Of a DNA stretch of 64,000 nt, positions 11,890 to 17,865 are shown in pieces; within the stretch, counting starts at the first letter, position 1; each line of letters starts with the position of its first letter. Position numbers and translations under genes: made by a program. The notes below the pieces were generated by a model. The model saw nothing but the letters and a program-made list of their open reading frames with translations, made no database searches and was not told where the DNA came from. Source of the DNA: an uncultured Prevotellaceae bacterium (lineage in GTDB: Bacteria; Bacteroidota; Bacteroidia; Bacteroidales; Bacteroidaceae); contig CAMHUI010000005.1 of NCBI GenBank assembly GCA_946188345.1, positions 25,435 to 89,434 on the forward strand, read 5' to 3'.

Positions 11890-12456
11890 CTACCAGCTCC
11901 AGATAGAGCCGTTCGGGTTGTTGCTACGCTGCTGCGTACTACGGTTTCCAAAGTAGTCGGTAGACGACGTGGACGTTCCCTCCGTCTGACCATACCTGTT
12001 ACGGTAAGTTGTCGTTGAATTGCCGAAACAATCCGTCGAAGTCGTCGATGAGCCGATGCTGCCGCCATACTGGTCGTAATAGTTCGTCGTCGTGCCACCA
12101 CCATAGTTTTCCCTCGTCGTCGACGAGCCGATGCTGCCACCATACTGGTCGTAATAGTTCGTCGTCGTGCCACCACCATAGTTGGAACGTGTCGTGGCAC
12201 TGCCCGTACTGCCACCATACTGGTCATAGTAGTTCGTCGTCGTTCCGCCACCATAGTTGGAACGTGTCGTGGCGCTACCTGCACTGCCGCCATATTGGTC
12301 ATAATAGTTGGTAGTGTAGCCGCCGCCATAGTTCGAACGAGTCGTCGACGAGCCGATGCTGCCGCCATACTGGTCGTAATAGCGGGTGCTGTACTGCGCA
12401 TTTGCTGAGATGGCGAAGAGGACAGCCATCAGTGTCATCATAATCTTTTTCATCAT
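11890..12456 (-). CDS. Secreted protein made of 25-aa G/S/T/Y-rich repeats (function unknown)
   Basis: Signal peptide ANA-Q; about 5 copies of YYDQYGGSxGSxTTRxNYGGGxTTN (75-bp DNA period) plus a degenerate copy. Confidence 0.85.
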   Translation of the reverse strand: MMKKIMMTLMAVLFAISANAQYSTRYYDQYGGSIGSSTTRSNYGGGYTTNYYDQYGGSAGSATTRSNYGGGTTTNYYDQYGGSTGSATTRSNYGGGTTTNYYDQYGGSIGSSTTRENYGGGTTTNYYDQYGGSIGSSTTSTDCFGNSTTTYRNRYGQTEGTSTSSTDYFGNRSTQQRSNNPNGSIWSW

Positions 12457-12474
12457 TTCAGAGTTATTTTAAGT

Positions 12475-12921
12475 TCATTTACGTTTCATCTTCTCTTTCA
12501 ATTCAGCCAACGCCTCGGCCGCATATCTGCTGCCATACCTCACACCTTTCCTATAGTCCTTTTTGGCAGCATTCAACATGCCAAGTTCCTCATAGGCATA
12601 TCCTCGGATATAGTACAGTTCACCATCGTAATACTTCGTATCCAATGCATGCCCCACATAGCTGACGACATCCCACCACTGCCTGTCATGGAATGCCTCA
12701 AAGGCCTTGTCTGCGAAGAACTCGTAATTCTCCTTCCTCCTTGACGCTGTTTCAGCGAGCGCCCGCACATAGGCATTCATCGCCCCGCTGTCATACAGTT
12801 CCGTCGTAGGGAATATCACCGGGCCATCATACTGCGCCCAACTCTTCATACTCGCCATGCACGCCATGGCCATCATCAGCACACACTTCTTCTTAATTCC
12901 TTTTTTCATAGTTCCATTCAT
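12475..12921 (-). CDS. Secreted short TPR-like protein
   Basis: Signal peptide SWA-Q; YYIRGYAYEELGMLNAAKKDYRKG is a TPR-type motif. Start may be at MKKGI. Confidence 0.75.
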   Translation of the reverse strand: MNGTMKKGIKKKCVLMMAMACMASMKSWAQYDGPVIFPTTELYDSGAMNAYVRALAETASRRKENYEFFADKAFEAFHDRQWWDVVSYVGHALDTKYYDGELYYIRGYAYEELGMLNAAKKDYRKGVRYGSRYAAEALAELKEKMKRK

Positions 12922-13016
12922 TTTTCTTGATTACTTTTTCTTGATTTCTTTTCCATTATTTATAATAATTCCTTCTTTCTTCTCGTCCCATCCTTTTCGT
13001 TTATCCCTCTCGGCCG

Positions 13017-13075
13017 CAAAGTTACCTCCATTTCCCCACTCCGACAAACAAAAACAAATCACAAGCCTTGTGAAA
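13017..13075 (-). promoter_or_regulatory. Leftward promoter (TTTG-N20-TAacTTTG) with upstream palindromic box TTTCACAAGGCTTGTG
   Basis: Box 13060-13075, -33 element 13045-13048, -7 element 13017-13024; same layout as 15928-15986. Confidence 0.75.
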
Positions 13076-13150
13076 CCCACATTTTCCCTCAAAAGTTTTC
13101 ATTATTCCAATAATCTTTGTATTTTTGCACAAACAATACCACATAAACTT

Positions 13151-13303
13151 ATGAGCTACCCACTGATATCAGAATACATTGAGGCTATTTTGGCGGCTGA
13201 GAACAACTTCGAGGAGTTGAACTATCTTCGCCCTGTTTTGGATGAAAAAGGACAGCCCGTAATGACGAGCGGCAACTTTGCCGGCGCTTTTAAAAAAGTA
13301 TAA
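13151..13303 (+). pseudogene. Truncated N-terminus of a Bacteroidales kinase-like protein
   Basis: MSYPLISEYIEAILAAENNFEELNYLRPVLDEKGQPVMTSGNFA resembles the start of Prevotella kinase-domain proteins (SGNFA loop) but stops at 50 aa; promoter TAttTTTG at 13120. Confidence 0.65.
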
Positions 13304-13467
13304 TCGTAATGGGGAACTGGCCCTTGAAGAAGGGGAAGAAACAAAAATGATGTGGGATTTTCCAATCAGCATGAGTCAGGAAGATATGCTGACCGTTATT
13401 AAAAAGAAAGCTGATGAGTGGAATATATATTGCATTTTTAAATAATTAAGCGTACGCCTTGTAAAAT

Positions 13468-14079
13468 ATGTTTTTAATCGTTTTACCTATGAATACAAAA
13501 GATAAAGAGAAAAGGTCCTTTTTGAGCGATATTATTGGCTCAAACAACTATAATAAGATAACTGAGACTTGGAAATGGCCTATTGCTATTTATTCAGTAT
13601 CGGCATTGGTTCTCTATGGTCTTACCACAATTTGCTATTCACAAGTTGTCAGCTATCTATTTTCCTTATTGGTAGGTTTTAACTTGTTCTTCATCGTTTT
13701 TCTTTTTGGATTGACTGTTTGCCTTGATATTCAAGTATCAGGAAAAGGTTTTGAAAAAAGGGATGGAGCGAAACCATCTTTTATGTATATATGTACCATA
13801 TTATGGCTAGTCATTCTGTTATTTGTAGGAGTGTTTGCCATATGGAAAACCGAGAAGATGCGGAAGGACTATGCCTTCCAATGTAAAACGGTTTATGTTG
13901 ACCAAGCAAATAAAATTCTACATTTATATGATTTCTGTGAAAGTATTGATTGGGACCATGTTGAAAAGGTAAAAGTCCACACAATTAATCATAACAATTA
14001 CTCTAGATGTGAGGAATGTATAGAATGGACTTACGAAATGCATGATGCGGCTCGCGACCTATATTTACGACATGAATAA
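13468..14079 (+). CDS. Hypothetical membrane protein (3 TM) with C-terminal His/Cys cluster
   Basis: Three hydrophobic segments; LHLYDFC...SRCEEC. Confidence 0.7.
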   Translation: MFLIVLPMNTKDKEKRSFLSDIIGSNNYNKITETWKWPIAIYSVSALVLYGLTTICYSQVVSYLFSLLVGFNLFFIVFLFGLTVCLDIQVSGKGFEKRDGAKPSFMYICTILWLVILLFVGVFAIWKTEKMRKDYAFQCKTVYVDQANKILHLYDFCESIDWDHVEKVKVHTINHNNYSRCEECIEWTYEMHDAARDLYLRHE

Positions 14080-14404
14080 TGATATAATAAAAATGAGAGG
14101 TATAAACTTTATTCTGGCTTTCCTCTTGGTTCTCTGCCTTGCTCCGATGCCTTACGGTTATTATCAGTTGGTGAGATTCGTGGCGATGGTGGTCTTTGGA
14201 GTTATGGCTTACCATTATTTCGAAAAGAAGCAGGAGGCATGGGCTGTAACGTTCGGGGCCTTGGCTCTTCTTTTTCAACCTTTTGTAAAGGTGACGCTGG
14301 GTCGCACACTATGGAATATTGTAGATGTTGCCGTCGCCATATTACTCATTATCGTATGCTCGTCAAAAGAAGATAACACTAACACAACAGGTAATTTGAA
14401 ATGA
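14072..14404 (+). CDS. DUF6804-family small membrane protein
   Basis: CLAPMPYGYYQLVRF, ALLFQPF and WNIVDV motifs; start uncertain (14072 or 14093). Confidence 0.75.
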   Translation: MNNDIIKMRGINFILAFLLVLCLAPMPYGYYQLVRFVAMVVFGVMAYHYFEKKQEAWAVTFGALALLFQPFVKVTLGRTLWNIVDVAVAILLIIVCSSKEDNTNTTGNLK

Positions 14405-15906
14405 AGATACTTATAGGCATACTCATCGTTCTATACGTTTTACTCTTGTTATTCCTGATTGTATTTGGCATTAATGAGGCTATACAGGAGAGAAAAAAGA
14501 AAGAATTCAGGGAGTGTTTGGCTGACAGTCTTCTGTTCTGGCTGCTGCTCCCCCTTTTACCGATACTCATTCCTATCGCTATGCTCATTTCGCCGATTAC
14601 ATCAAAGATTTCCGAAATAAGACGACATGGCGGCATCAAGGGCTATCGGAAATGGAAAGATGATCTGAAACAGGAGGAAATAGAGCGCCAAAGAAAAAAG
14701 GAGGAAGAGAAGAGGCTGACACAACTCTACACCACGGGGGCCATCAGCCGGCTGGACCTTCCCAAAAAGGAGAATGGCATCAATAAGTTTGAATTTGACG
14801 AATCGTTAGGCCTGAGCGTTGACTATGAAGCTGAGGTACGACAGATTATATATGTGGAGCGTGATTATAACGAGCGACTGAACCGCTTCTTCCTTGAACA
14901 CCCGGACCTGCGCCTCTACCACATGTACAAGTTCTTATATCTGCCCCGACTGGGCAATGACCTGGAGGATGCTCTCCACTATTCTTTTCCTGGTGCATCG
15001 ATGGAGGGTATCGCCATCCCGACGATTGACTCCACCTACCCCATCGACTATCTGGTCTATCAAGAAGATGCTGCCAATATCAAGCATGGCATGTTCTTCT
15101 TCGTCAACGGAAAGGAAAACTGCGGGGCCAAATACACCCAAGGACAATACTATCCCTTGGAGGAAGGAAGCGACGAGGAGATTATCCAACAATTACACAC
15201 CATCGTCCGCGCTGTTCATAGCCAAAATGGTAACTTCTACAGCGGAGGGGTCTATTGCACTGAGAAGAAGCCCGACATCCCCGAAGGGACAACCGAGAAT
15301 TACGCCGACCAAATGTATGATTGGGAGTTCTTTAATGAGCAAAGTCTTTTTGCGCCGCAGCTGCCCGATGACAACGGGCAAGGAGACGGTGCCCGTCCTT
15401 CCGAAGATGAGATTAAGGAACTGGTAAATGGCATCAAACAGCGGCTGCAAAAACTCAATGAATTAGGAGTGGAAAAAAGTTTCCTCATGAAACTGCTACA
15501 GCCCAAGACTCGTTTCAGCCGTCTCGTCGTCACCAAGGATTATAAGATTCTCCTTCCTGACTATCACAATATGGAGATACACATGGAACCGCTGGTGAAG
15601 GCGGTATACCTGCTGTTCCTACGGCATCCAGAGGGGATTCTGTTCAAACATCTGCCTGACTACCGAAAAGAACTGACCGGCATCTATGTCAAACTGAAGC
15701 CGTACGGAATGAACGAGAGGGTTCTGAAGAGCATCGAGGATGTGACGAATCCCACGCTGAACTCCATCAACGAGAAGTGTGCCCGTATCAGAGGGGCTTT
15801 CATTTCCCGGTTTGAAGAGGATTTGGCTCAACACTATTACATTTTTGGTTTCCGTGGCGATCCCAAGAAGATTAAGTTGGACCGCAGCCTGGTGGTATGG
15901 GAATAA
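14401..15906 (+). CDS. Membrane-anchored protein with C-terminal winged-helix-like domain (putative regulator)
   Basis: Two N-terminal TM helices and a coiled coil; the C-terminal EIHMEPLVKAVYLLFLRHPEGI...SINEKCARIRGAF has OmpR-type wHTH spacing. Confidence 0.65.
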   Translation: MKILIGILIVLYVLLLLFLIVFGINEAIQERKKKEFRECLADSLLFWLLLPLLPILIPIAMLISPITSKISEIRRHGGIKGYRKWKDDLKQEEIERQRKKEEEKRLTQLYTTGAISRLDLPKKENGINKFEFDESLGLSVDYEAEVRQIIYVERDYNERLNRFFLEHPDLRLYHMYKFLYLPRLGNDLEDALHYSFPGASMEGIAIPTIDSTYPIDYLVYQEDAANIKHGMFFFVNGKENCGAKYTQGQYYPLEEGSDEEIIQQLHTIVRAVHSQNGNFYSGGVYCTEKKPDIPEGTTENYADQMYDWEFFNEQSLFAPQLPDDNGQGDGARPSEDEIKELVNGIKQRLQKLNELGVEKSFLMKLLQPKTRFSRLVVTKDYKILLPDYHNMEIHMEPLVKAVYLLFLRHPEGILFKHLPDYRKELTGIYVKLKPYGMNERVLKSIEDVTNPTLNSINEKCARIRGAFISRFEEDLAQHYYIFGFRGDPKKIKLDRSLVVWE

Positions 15907-15927
15907 AGGCCGGAAATAAAATTGCAT

Positions 15928-15986
15928 TTTCACAAGGCTTGTGGAGGAAAATGATTTGGTTGCAAAGAGGGAATCGCCTATCTTTG
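15928..15986 (+). promoter_or_regulatory. Rightward promoter (TTTG-N20-TAtcTTTG) with upstream palindromic box TTTCACAAGGCTTGTG
   Basis: Box 15928-15943, -33 element 15955-15958, -7 element 15979-15986. Confidence 0.75.
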
Positions 15987-16062
15987 CAACCAAATTCTTT
16001 ATAATGTTCCCTGACTCCCCTATCATATAGTCAGGGAATAAAAAACAACATGCGTATATTTT

Positions 16063-16968
16063 ATGGAAGGTATGAAACACATCAGTGAATTGATTGAAGG
16101 GGCGAGGGATGCCGATAATATGGTTTATAAGACAGGGTTTGACTTCCTTGACAAAAGGATTGGCGGTTATCGCAAGGATGAGCTGACTATTGTCATGGGA
16201 GGCATCAATAGTGGAAAGTCGGCATTTATCATTACTCAGCTGAACCGGTTTGCCGTAGATCAGGAGATTCCGACTCTGTTTGTCTATAATAACATGAAAG
16301 AAAGGGATTTCATCGCTTCGATGGCTGCCTACTATTGTTCCATCAGGACTAACAACATCTTGTCTGTTTTGAAGAAAGGCTATGAATATCAAAAGGAGGT
16401 TGAGGCCTATCTGCAAAAGCTAAACAACGCACCGCTTTATGTCCTTGAGTGTGGGGACAATAAGGATAAAGCACTTTTAAGCGAGATTGAAATGTTTGTC
16501 AAGGAGAAAGGCGTCAAGGTTGTTTTCTTGGACGAGATGCCGACAGTGATTAATGGTGACTTCCGCTTGTTGCCCCTGCAGGAACTGGCACGAAGGCTGC
16601 ACATCCCCATCGTGGCTACGCTCACCACGTTTACTTTGCGCGATAGCATAGGCTTTATGCCGACACTGAACGATTTGGCACAATACCATGGATTTCATGA
16701 GGTTGACGTGGTCATCGGCTTGACAGCCTATGATAATTACAATGCCTACGACTTCAATGAACAAAATGATATGGCTGGCGACATTTCAGTCCACATATTG
16801 AAAATCAGAGGGGTTCATAACAAACGTATATTTCTTATAAAGAAAGCCAGACTTCTGTGTCGAAGCTATCCGAAGGAGGATGCCATGCTAAAGAGGCTAC
16901 AGAACGAGAACCATTCCATCACGAATCTTATCGACTTGTTGGAATTAAAAACTGTTGAGGAAGATTAG
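16063..16968 (+). CDS. DnaB-like helicase C-terminal (RecA-fold) domain protein, degenerate
   Basis: TGFDFLDKRIGG, Walker A GGINSGKS, Walker B VVFLD, LARRLHIPIV; no DnaB N-terminal domain. Confidence 0.8.
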   Translation: MEGMKHISELIEGARDADNMVYKTGFDFLDKRIGGYRKDELTIVMGGINSGKSAFIITQLNRFAVDQEIPTLFVYNNMKERDFIASMAAYYCSIRTNNILSVLKKGYEYQKEVEAYLQKLNNAPLYVLECGDNKDKALLSEIEMFVKEKGVKVVFLDEMPTVINGDFRLLPLQELARRLHIPIVATLTTFTLRDSIGFMPTLNDLAQYHGFHEVDVVIGLTAYDNYNAYDFNEQNDMAGDISVHILKIRGVHNKRIFLIKKARLLCRSYPKEDAMLKRLQNENHSITNLIDLLELKTVEED

Positions 16969-16989: not shown

Positions 16990-17865
16990 TCAGTCCTCCT
17001 GCTCGTAATAGTAGGAGTAGTCGATGCCCTTCATGAAGATTTCGCGGTCGTCAATTCTATCGGTCAGGACTGACTCCAGAAGGCTTTTGATTTTTGTGTT
17101 GTCCATCTGACTCTCCACCATCGCACTGAGATAATCGCGTTTATTGATTTTGCTCCAGTCGACGCATTTGCCTAACCGTTTCTTGAAAATCAGGTCAAGC
17201 CAGATGCGTGTTGAACGGCCGTTACCTTCCATGAAAGGGTGCGCCACGTTCATCTCAACATATTTATCAACTATCTCATCGAATGACGTCTCAGGCATCA
17301 GCTCAATGGTCTTCAGATTCTGATGCAGGTATTCAGCCAGACAGAAGATGGTATTGCCTTTCGAAATCGTCTTCGTGCGTATTTTCCCTGCGAAGTCGTA
17401 GAGTCCGCCAAACAGATAGGCATGAATCTGCTGGAGGCATTTCACTGTCCCCGGCTTCATGCTGTCGAGCAATCCACTCTCTATAAGTGTGTAAGCCTTC
17501 TTTTTACTTTGCCCATCAATGGTGTTATCGCTATATACGAACCAGTCGAGGAAGTCGCTAGCTCGATTATTCGGATAGTGCTTGGCCAATGTCTGCACGC
17601 CTTCCGCATCGAGGGCATCAGCCGCACGCTGCTTGCCGTCTGGAGCCTCGAATTTGAAGTGGTTAGTGGTACTAACCAGTTGAACGTTTTCTTTAGCAAG
17701 TTTGCCTTTCAGGTATTTCCAATAGTTACGACATTTCTTGTAATCATCTTCATCATTGATGGCTCGTACGATGTCAGTAGCCGAGAACCACCACTTGCTG
17801 TGTTCCTCGTCCCAAACGGCACGGACCTCTCTGTCGTTGAAGAAACGGATTGACTTCTTGCTCAT
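16990..17865 (-). CDS. fic: Fic-family adenylyltransferase (NmFic-like class III) with N-terminal BRO-like domain
   Basis: HPFMEGNGRSTR Fic motif; C-terminal GIDYSYYYE; N-terminal VRAVWDEE..KWWFS..RNYWK..APDGK. Confidence 0.9.
   Translation of the reverse strand: MSKKSIRFFNDREVRAVWDEEHSKWWFSATDIVRAINDEDDYKKCRNYWKYLKGKLAKENVQLVSTTNHFKFEAPDGKQRAADALDAEGVQTLAKHYPNNRASDFLDWFVYSDNTIDGQSKKKAYTLIESGLLDSMKPGTVKCLQQIHAYLFGGLYDFAGKIRTKTISKGNTIFCLAEYLHQNLKTIELMPETSFDEIVDKYVEMNVAHPFMEGNGRSTRIWLDLIFKKRLGKCVDWSKINKRDYLSAMVESQMDNTKIKSLLESVLTDRIDDREIFMKGIDYSYYYEQED

Follow-up and report, generated by a model that had tools for sequence, protein, structure and literature searches.

A conserved palindromic box at fixed distances from primary-sigma promoters, and a candidate one-component winged-helix regulator of variable gene islands in Prevotellaceae

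Membrane-anchored transcription factors of the ToxR/TcpP/CadC type act from sites upstream of the core promoter that are built as direct repeats, and ToxR and CadC carry an N-terminal DNA-binding domain followed by a membrane helix and a periplasmic sensor. Here we analyse a locus in 64,000 nucleotides of DNA from an uncultured Prevotellaceae bacterium (assembly GCA_946188345.1, contig CAMHUI010000005.1; this whole 64-kb stretch is called the window), in which two identical palindromic boxes flank the gene of a 501-amino-acid (501-aa) protein (14401..15906, plus strand; open reading frame (ORF), predicted structure, hydropathy). Like ToxR, TcpP and CadC, this protein combines a membrane segment with a predicted winged helix of the OmpR/PhoB type (CadC Z 7.9, TcpP Z 7.3, ToxR Z 6.7) and has no receiver domain. 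Unlike them, it has its membrane segments first and its DNA-binding domain last, without a periplasmic sensor; most of its relatives are soluble, and the associated motif is an inverted repeat. The OmpR/PhoB response regulators BaeR, PhoB and GlnR provide the best structural matches (13% identity for BaeR) and share the C-terminal position of the domain, but the 501-aa protein differs from them in that family searches found neither a receiver domain in the protein nor a histidine kinase in the island, and the candidate site is palindromic with paired changes.

The broad class of transmembrane one-component regulators, as outlined in PMC10269533, would accommodate the 501-aa protein with its predicted DNA-binding domain and membrane segment, as it would only 21 of 61 homologues of the same architecture. 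SusR is described as a membrane protein whose cytoplasmic C-terminal DNA-binding domain activates neighbouring operons, with a periplasmic sensor for sugar and, by prediction, direct repeats spaced by 67 or 77 bp (PMC3878776). The 501-aa protein is similar in being a membrane protein with a predicted cytoplasmic C-terminal DNA-binding domain, and dissimilar in its palindromic motif, in having fewer than 20 residues between its hydrophobic segments, and in targets that are not sugar-use genes. A winged helix is also shared with the WYL regulators BrxR, CapW and DdaA, of which BrxR is reported to bind inverted repeats and to repress (PMC9122601) and DdaA to activate damage and defence genes (PMC12392091). 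These WYL regulators are tied to defence genes; a defence role would be a guess for the 501-aa family, in which family searches did not find a WYL domain. A full-text literature search, covering titles and abstract starts and few subscription journals, returned no description of the family or the motif.

We think it likely that the boxes are operators of the predicted winged helix of the 501-aa protein, which probably activates primary-sigma promoters of its own island. The 16-mer CACAAGnCTTGTG has just two copies in the genome, each 35 bp ahead of a TAnnTTTG element, and searching the sequence again located them at 13075-13060 (minus strand) and 15928-15943 (plus strand), where an earlier note on this DNA had placed them. 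Their 13-bp core, CACAAG-n-CTTGTG, lies at 13060..13072 (box 1) and at 15931..15943 (box 2, 24 bp past the regulator stop codon), and sequence search found the same two exact copies, and no others, in the window and in the whole assembly (1.96 Mb, 57% complete). The layout box-N11-TTTG-N20-TAnnTTTG that the note described is seen at both boxes: predicted promoter 1 (13017..13048, minus strand) has its -33 TTTG at 13048-13045 and its -7 element at 13024-13017, 35 bp from box 1, and predicted promoter 2 (15955..15986, plus strand) has these elements at 15955-15958 and 15979-15986, the latter 35 bp from box 2. Among 1,060 TAnnTTTG sites in the genome, an exact box stands 35 bp upstream of two and a box with 1-3 mismatches of none. 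Overlooked in the note was a second partner of box 1, a plus-strand TAnnTTTG at 13120-13127 (promoter 3, from the sequence) that begins 47 bp away. Box 1 is situated between two divergent promoters, and the 47-bp promoter, which faces a kinase remnant, the genes of two membrane proteins and that of the 501-aa regulator, likely serves autoregulation. The Bacteroides -7 consensus is given as TANNTTTGY in PMC12632263. At promoter 2, a 20-bp inverted repeat (window 15949-16000) overlaps both the -33 and the -7 elements.

The two boxes form a 16-bp inverted pair, and they might instead be recombination sites, serving inversion of 13060-15943 or cassette exchange, an explanation to which we give very little credence. 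Contigs from three other samples (runs X1, X4 and X9) follow the window exactly as far as 15943 and then diverge, which would suit such a site, as would run X2 with one joint, 15906 to 13059, that is not resolvable; the match to the last base of box 2 followed by difference suggests that the promoter spacer and the following gene are exchanged between strains. Nevertheless, the X1, X4 and X9 contigs cross box 1 collinear with the window (contigs only, without the 23 undisplayed joints), in many related loci there is one box alone or a set of same-facing boxes, and a recombination site would not need a fixed distance to a promoter. In Bacteroidales invertible promoters the promoter is enclosed by inverted repeats and a recombinase is available, whereas here the repeat pair does not enclose promoters 1 and 2, so that inversion would not flip either of them, and family searches found no recombinase among the island genes (the rest of the genome was not searched for one).

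Other genomes allowed the spacing to be examined more broadly. A survey of 401 genomes of the family found the exact 13-mer in 103 and its reversed control in 30; the bare 13-mer is a noisy probe, since most of the first 30 loci fetched had no promoter link. A scan of 17 of the 64 parts of the species collection with the pattern box, 20-50 bases, TAnnTTTG yielded 124 loci, which were sorted by record title. The Bacteroidales boxes among them (76 distinct) pair with the element at 35 bp (n=38), 36 bp (n=8) and 45-48 bp (n=29), so the fixed spacing that the note reported for the window holds across genomes; boxes in other taxa (n=50) have a flat spread of distances, one being at 35 bp. Long Bacteroidales loci have the regulator's C-terminal domain in 20 cases out of 45 (two loci overlap others), the remaining loci in 0 out of 34. 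We also selected by protein, taking 100 regions (1.05 Mb) around listed matches to the domain, which is present in 99 of the 401 genomes. A box with at most one mismatch occurs in 29 of these 100 regions (control 0/100), and the generalised motif nnCAAG-n-CTTGnn gave 108 cores versus 19 control cores. Its outer base pairs covary (TG..CA 34, CA..TG 23, CG..CG 6), and the distance from core to TAnnTTTG is 28-29 bp (n=26), 35-36 bp (n=41) or 46-47 bp (n=17), pairs that the reversed control formed 0 times. Overall, the Bacteroidales core CAAGnCTTG thus shows three spacing classes, 28-29, 35-36 and 45-48 bp. A loose pattern for the 28-bp class stayed at control level (25 genomes vs 36) in 401 phylum-wide genomes mostly outside Bacteroidales. 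In one locus (L232:3600-7500, G114:C26), at least six boxes at 35 bp stand within 4 kb around a single regulator, one ahead of nearly each small gene. Near the regulator genes of L279 and L282 there is another palindrome, GGGG-n5-CCCC within longer inverted arms, 23-24 bp ahead of TAnnTTTG, and L269 has similar arms.

Boxes accumulate solely upstream of the -33 element, with singletons alone at positions downstream of -7, a placement that fits activation. We envisage that a winged-helix dimer would occupy the palindrome, whose midpoint is 42 bp upstream of where the -7 element begins (35 or 54 bp for the remaining classes), and that this symmetric dimer, just upstream of -33, would contact RNA polymerase. 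A signal may enter through the cytoplasmic middle domain. Polymerase contact would increase transcription of the cassettes on either side and, by way of the divergent 47-bp promoter, of the regulator's own gene run; the output would be whichever cassette follows the box, here the TPR protein, the repeat protein and a truncated DnaB-like protein. The same binder could act with the opposite sign, the family repressing by covering the region upstream of -33 until a signal releases it, which we consider unlikely. The -33 and -7 elements are good matches, the 28-bp class stands just 4 bp from -33, and BrxR of defence islands represses through inverted repeats in the account of PMC9122601. A repressor, however, fits poorly with the lack of any build-up of boxes at or downstream of the core elements, and with a spacing exact to the base whose 35-36 and 46-47 classes are one helical turn apart, as would be expected for polymerase contact.

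The box is statistically tied to the regulator family, a co-occurrence that the earlier note had suggested looking for: box plus promoter at 35-36 bp occurs in 35 of 98 genomes with the domain, in 11 of 302 without it, and in 1 of 401 for the control. We give counts and not probabilities because related genomes are not independent. Among 62 sites of box plus promoter, 42 have a family gene no more than 3 kb away, and for 15 the contig holds no such gene. The box is also tied to the predicted recognition helix (about aa 455-468), which is almost invariant. In 98 protein-selected loci with a called regulator ORF, a box lies within 2.5 kb at 54 of 74 loci with a canonical helix and at 1 of 24 without it, the exception being a frameshifted copy; the helix pattern was set after the alignment was seen. 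Several members with divergent helices have one-off palindromes at the same spacings. Box variants cluster on a quick tree of 74 regulator domains (20 changes vs a shuffled mean of 37), which kinship alone could produce; more telling than the tree is genome G097, where two regulator clades on shared contigs each adjoin their own box variant and spacing. Residues that might separate CA- from TG-type boxes were sought column by column, which returned only lineage differences outside the helix. One subfamily with an altered recognition helix (L266-L278) keeps to a stable position, close to radA and a housekeeping gene, with no box nearby, and inspection by eye revealed no alternative palindrome there.

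Alternatively, the box may be the operator of another factor, either the WYL proteins of the islands or a chromosomal regulator, with the 501-aa family simply co-travelling on the islands. This is in our view improbable. It would account for orphan boxes in near-complete genomes, for a box placed between a WYL gene upstream and a type I-B cas operon downstream, and for regulator genes that are themselves often downstream of boxes. On the other hand, the WYL cluster has 5 members as against 128 regulator ORFs in 138 regions, box presence tracks the regulator's predicted recognition helix, and the G097 clades lie beside different box variants and spacings on the same contigs. A chromosomal factor would moreover be expected to have boxes in most genomes, yet the box at 35-36 bp is in only 47 of 401.

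At the level of prediction, the proposal of a winged-helix C-terminal domain was borne out. The regulator is composed of two N-terminal hydrophobic segments (aa 1-65), a middle alpha/beta domain (aa ~124-280), a helical linker and the winged helix (aa 372-501), and its AlphaFold model (aa 114-501) is confident, with a pLDDT of 87.9. The predicted aa 372-501 align with OmpR/PhoB-type domains, which take all top 25 rows of the structure comparison (best BaeR, Z 9.1, root-mean-square deviation 2.7, 98 aligned; 8-19% sequence identity among the matches) and also rank first with Foldseek. Sequence searches yielded little: no Pfam or NCBIfam model reached the cut-off for the regulator, Pfam on the C-terminal domain gave none at E 0.1 for the regulator and none in 76 homologues at E 0.001, and a PDB sequence search with the family profile gave nothing relevant. 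The last 172 residues have 3,637 homologues at 90% clustering and 2,343 at 50%, named only 'hypothetical' in databases. Atlas matches for the C-terminal domain are unnamed clusters; the middle domain had no Atlas match, and its fold no clear match, the best rows being thioredoxin-like (Z <=4.9). Homodimer prediction for aa 325-501 scored 0.22 against a mark of 0.42 and was used neither for nor against. No family members were found in viral contigs (single-protein query) or GenBank phages, and the plasmid search gave two plasmid records. On plasmid record NZ_CP091789.1 of the cultured Prevotella sp. E2-28, a box at 35 bp comes after the regulator gene.

The 128 regulator ORFs comprise 83 longer than 230 aa and 45 shorter, mostly ~190 aa; 61 of the longer ones have the same middle domain and 7 carry DUF1810 instead. 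The note had the regulator sense the membrane, which does not hold as a general trait of the family: a membrane segment is predicted in only 21 of the 61 proteins sharing the middle domain and not in the other 40, the 501-aa protein has no sizeable extracytoplasmic domain (fewer than 20 residues between hydrophobic segments that start at aa 1 and aa 38), and the segment has diverged in close strains. We infer that the middle domain is the signal input and the membrane anchor an exchangeable add-on. In three other samples the stretch that encodes the membrane segment (14428-14590) has the same length but a diverged sequence, between closely matching flanks. DUF6804, a separate gene in the window, is fused to the N-terminus of many close homologues, and in L305-L307 TerB-like domains are fused to the middle domain, giving proteins of 440-485 aa.

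Several results weigh against direct control by this family. Tallies overstate independence through genome kinship; 20 of 74 canonical-helix loci are without a box within 2.5 kb; and 11 genomes have box plus promoter with the regulator undetected. When 10 orphan-box genomes were searched again with a profile, 6 gave nothing, 1 gave a broken remnant and 3 matched in the middle domain only. G113, a 99% complete genome with no regulator detected, contains a perfect 35/47 divergent box. Some orphan boxes are inside ORFs and thus likely due to chance; others are perfect and intergenic. The -33 element is well conserved in 35-bp promoters (TTG in 44 of 60), so an activator is possibly not needed there. 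OmpR/PhoB domains usually bind direct repeats, the Foldseek E-values are weak (0.03 or worse), and at sequence level neither Pfam, NCBIfam nor the PDB profile search links the C-terminal domain to any known DNA-binding family. Finally, PADLOC matches are not enriched: they number 18 among 138 box-driven genes, likewise 18 among 138 neighbours, and 4 among 42 genes in the flanks of the window. One ORF per cluster was sampled, which gave 138 out of 292 driven ORFs and 138 out of 589 neighbours.

Genes between and beside the boxes are those that the note listed, as ORF and family searches showed. The island has a GC content of 37-51%, and the flanking housekeeping genes, with thrS at left, 57-58%. 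First behind promoter 1 is the gene of a 148-aa TPR protein (12475..12921, minus strand; TPR_8, E 3e-5), then that of a 188-aa protein (11890..12456, minus strand; ORF, repeats) with 25-aa repeats (five 75-bp copies). Both have signal-peptide-like starts, and the two genes recur together near boxes and regulators in other genomes. On the plus strand follow a Ser/Thr kinase remnant of 50 codons (13151..13303; 64-77% identity to kinase starts), whose intact relatives match PADLOC STK_OB, a 203-aa membrane protein without assigned family (13468..14079; ORF, family search) and the DUF6804 membrane protein (14042..14404; family search). The first gene behind promoter 2 encodes a 301-aa DnaB_C-like ATPase-fold protein (16063..16968, plus strand; family search). 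Its description as a degenerate DnaB-like ATPase stands in so far as the N-terminal domain is missing and Asn replaces the Glu of intact DnaB after Walker A, but Walker A- and B-like motifs are kept. A Bro-N plus Fic adenylyltransferase gene (window 16990-17865), facing the DnaB-like gene, ends the island at right.

These window targets are two of many interchangeable ones. According to a simple ORF caller, on which all target calls rest, the first genes behind 35-bp boxes (77 pairs) encode A1S_2505/vWA proteins (10), an unnamed 120-170-aa family (8), regulators (5) and DnaB-like proteins (3). Behind 28-bp boxes (28 pairs) they are an FtsZ paralogue (11) and regulators (6), and behind 47-bp boxes (45-49 bp; 41 pairs) regulators (8), kinases (5), DUF1848 (3) and WYL proteins (2); most box targets have no known family. 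In many genomes an FtsZ paralogue and a short regulator form a two-gene unit behind a 28-bp box (L198, L203, L204, L241-L243, L249, L253, L258, L259). CRISPR-associated genes also occur, as single cases: a 45-bp box stands ahead of cas9 and cas1 (L095:1504-6822), and a 35-bp box after a WYL gene and ahead of type I-B cas5-cas3-cas8b-cas7b (L294:5126-12099, G310:C42), where of the regulator only the middle domain was detected in the genome.

Modules of vWA, PP2C and kinase (TerY-P) are described as anti-phage in PMC11090510. PP2C and TerY PADLOC matches lie near box-driven STK_OB-type kinases in related loci, and parts of the module occur there; in the window island, which has the 50-codon kinase remnant only, it is not complete. 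Responses to stress or conflict are the most likely function of the recurring cargo (FtsZ paralogue, A1S_2505/vWA, kinases, DnaB-like, ADP-ribosylglycohydrolase). The note's proposals of an anti-phage role and an 'ATPase decoy' are guesses still, given the lack of PADLOC enrichment in box-driven genes.

We therefore regard the box as a real, conserved putative operator with a well-supported candidate binder, apparently a one-component winged-helix regulator from an unnamed family of variable gene islands. A much wider picture, which we offer tentatively and hold to be doubtful, is that one palindromic code is read by more than 2,000 clusters of proteins that share the OmpR/PhoB fold and have interchangeable sensors (membrane anchor, TerB-like, DUF1810, DUF6804, TPR). 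These would act as a plug-in activator of Prevotella conflict islands, where box variant and spacing would be clade-specific and infection or damage would call up decoy copies of FtsZ and DnaB, enzymes that handle ADP-ribose, kinases of the TerY-P kind and CRISPR-Cas operons captured by the islands. A large protein family so far called hypothetical, in the dominant rumen and gut genus, gains a predicted fold together with a probable binding site and its geometry at promoters. How activators are placed at Bacteroidetes -33/-7 promoters has been little mapped, and the three exact spacings lend themselves readily to testing; it would, if true, be unusual for an OmpR/PhoB-type domain to sit on an inverted repeat. 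The box may furthermore show which island genes are co-regulated, including the recurring FtsZ and DnaB paralogues.

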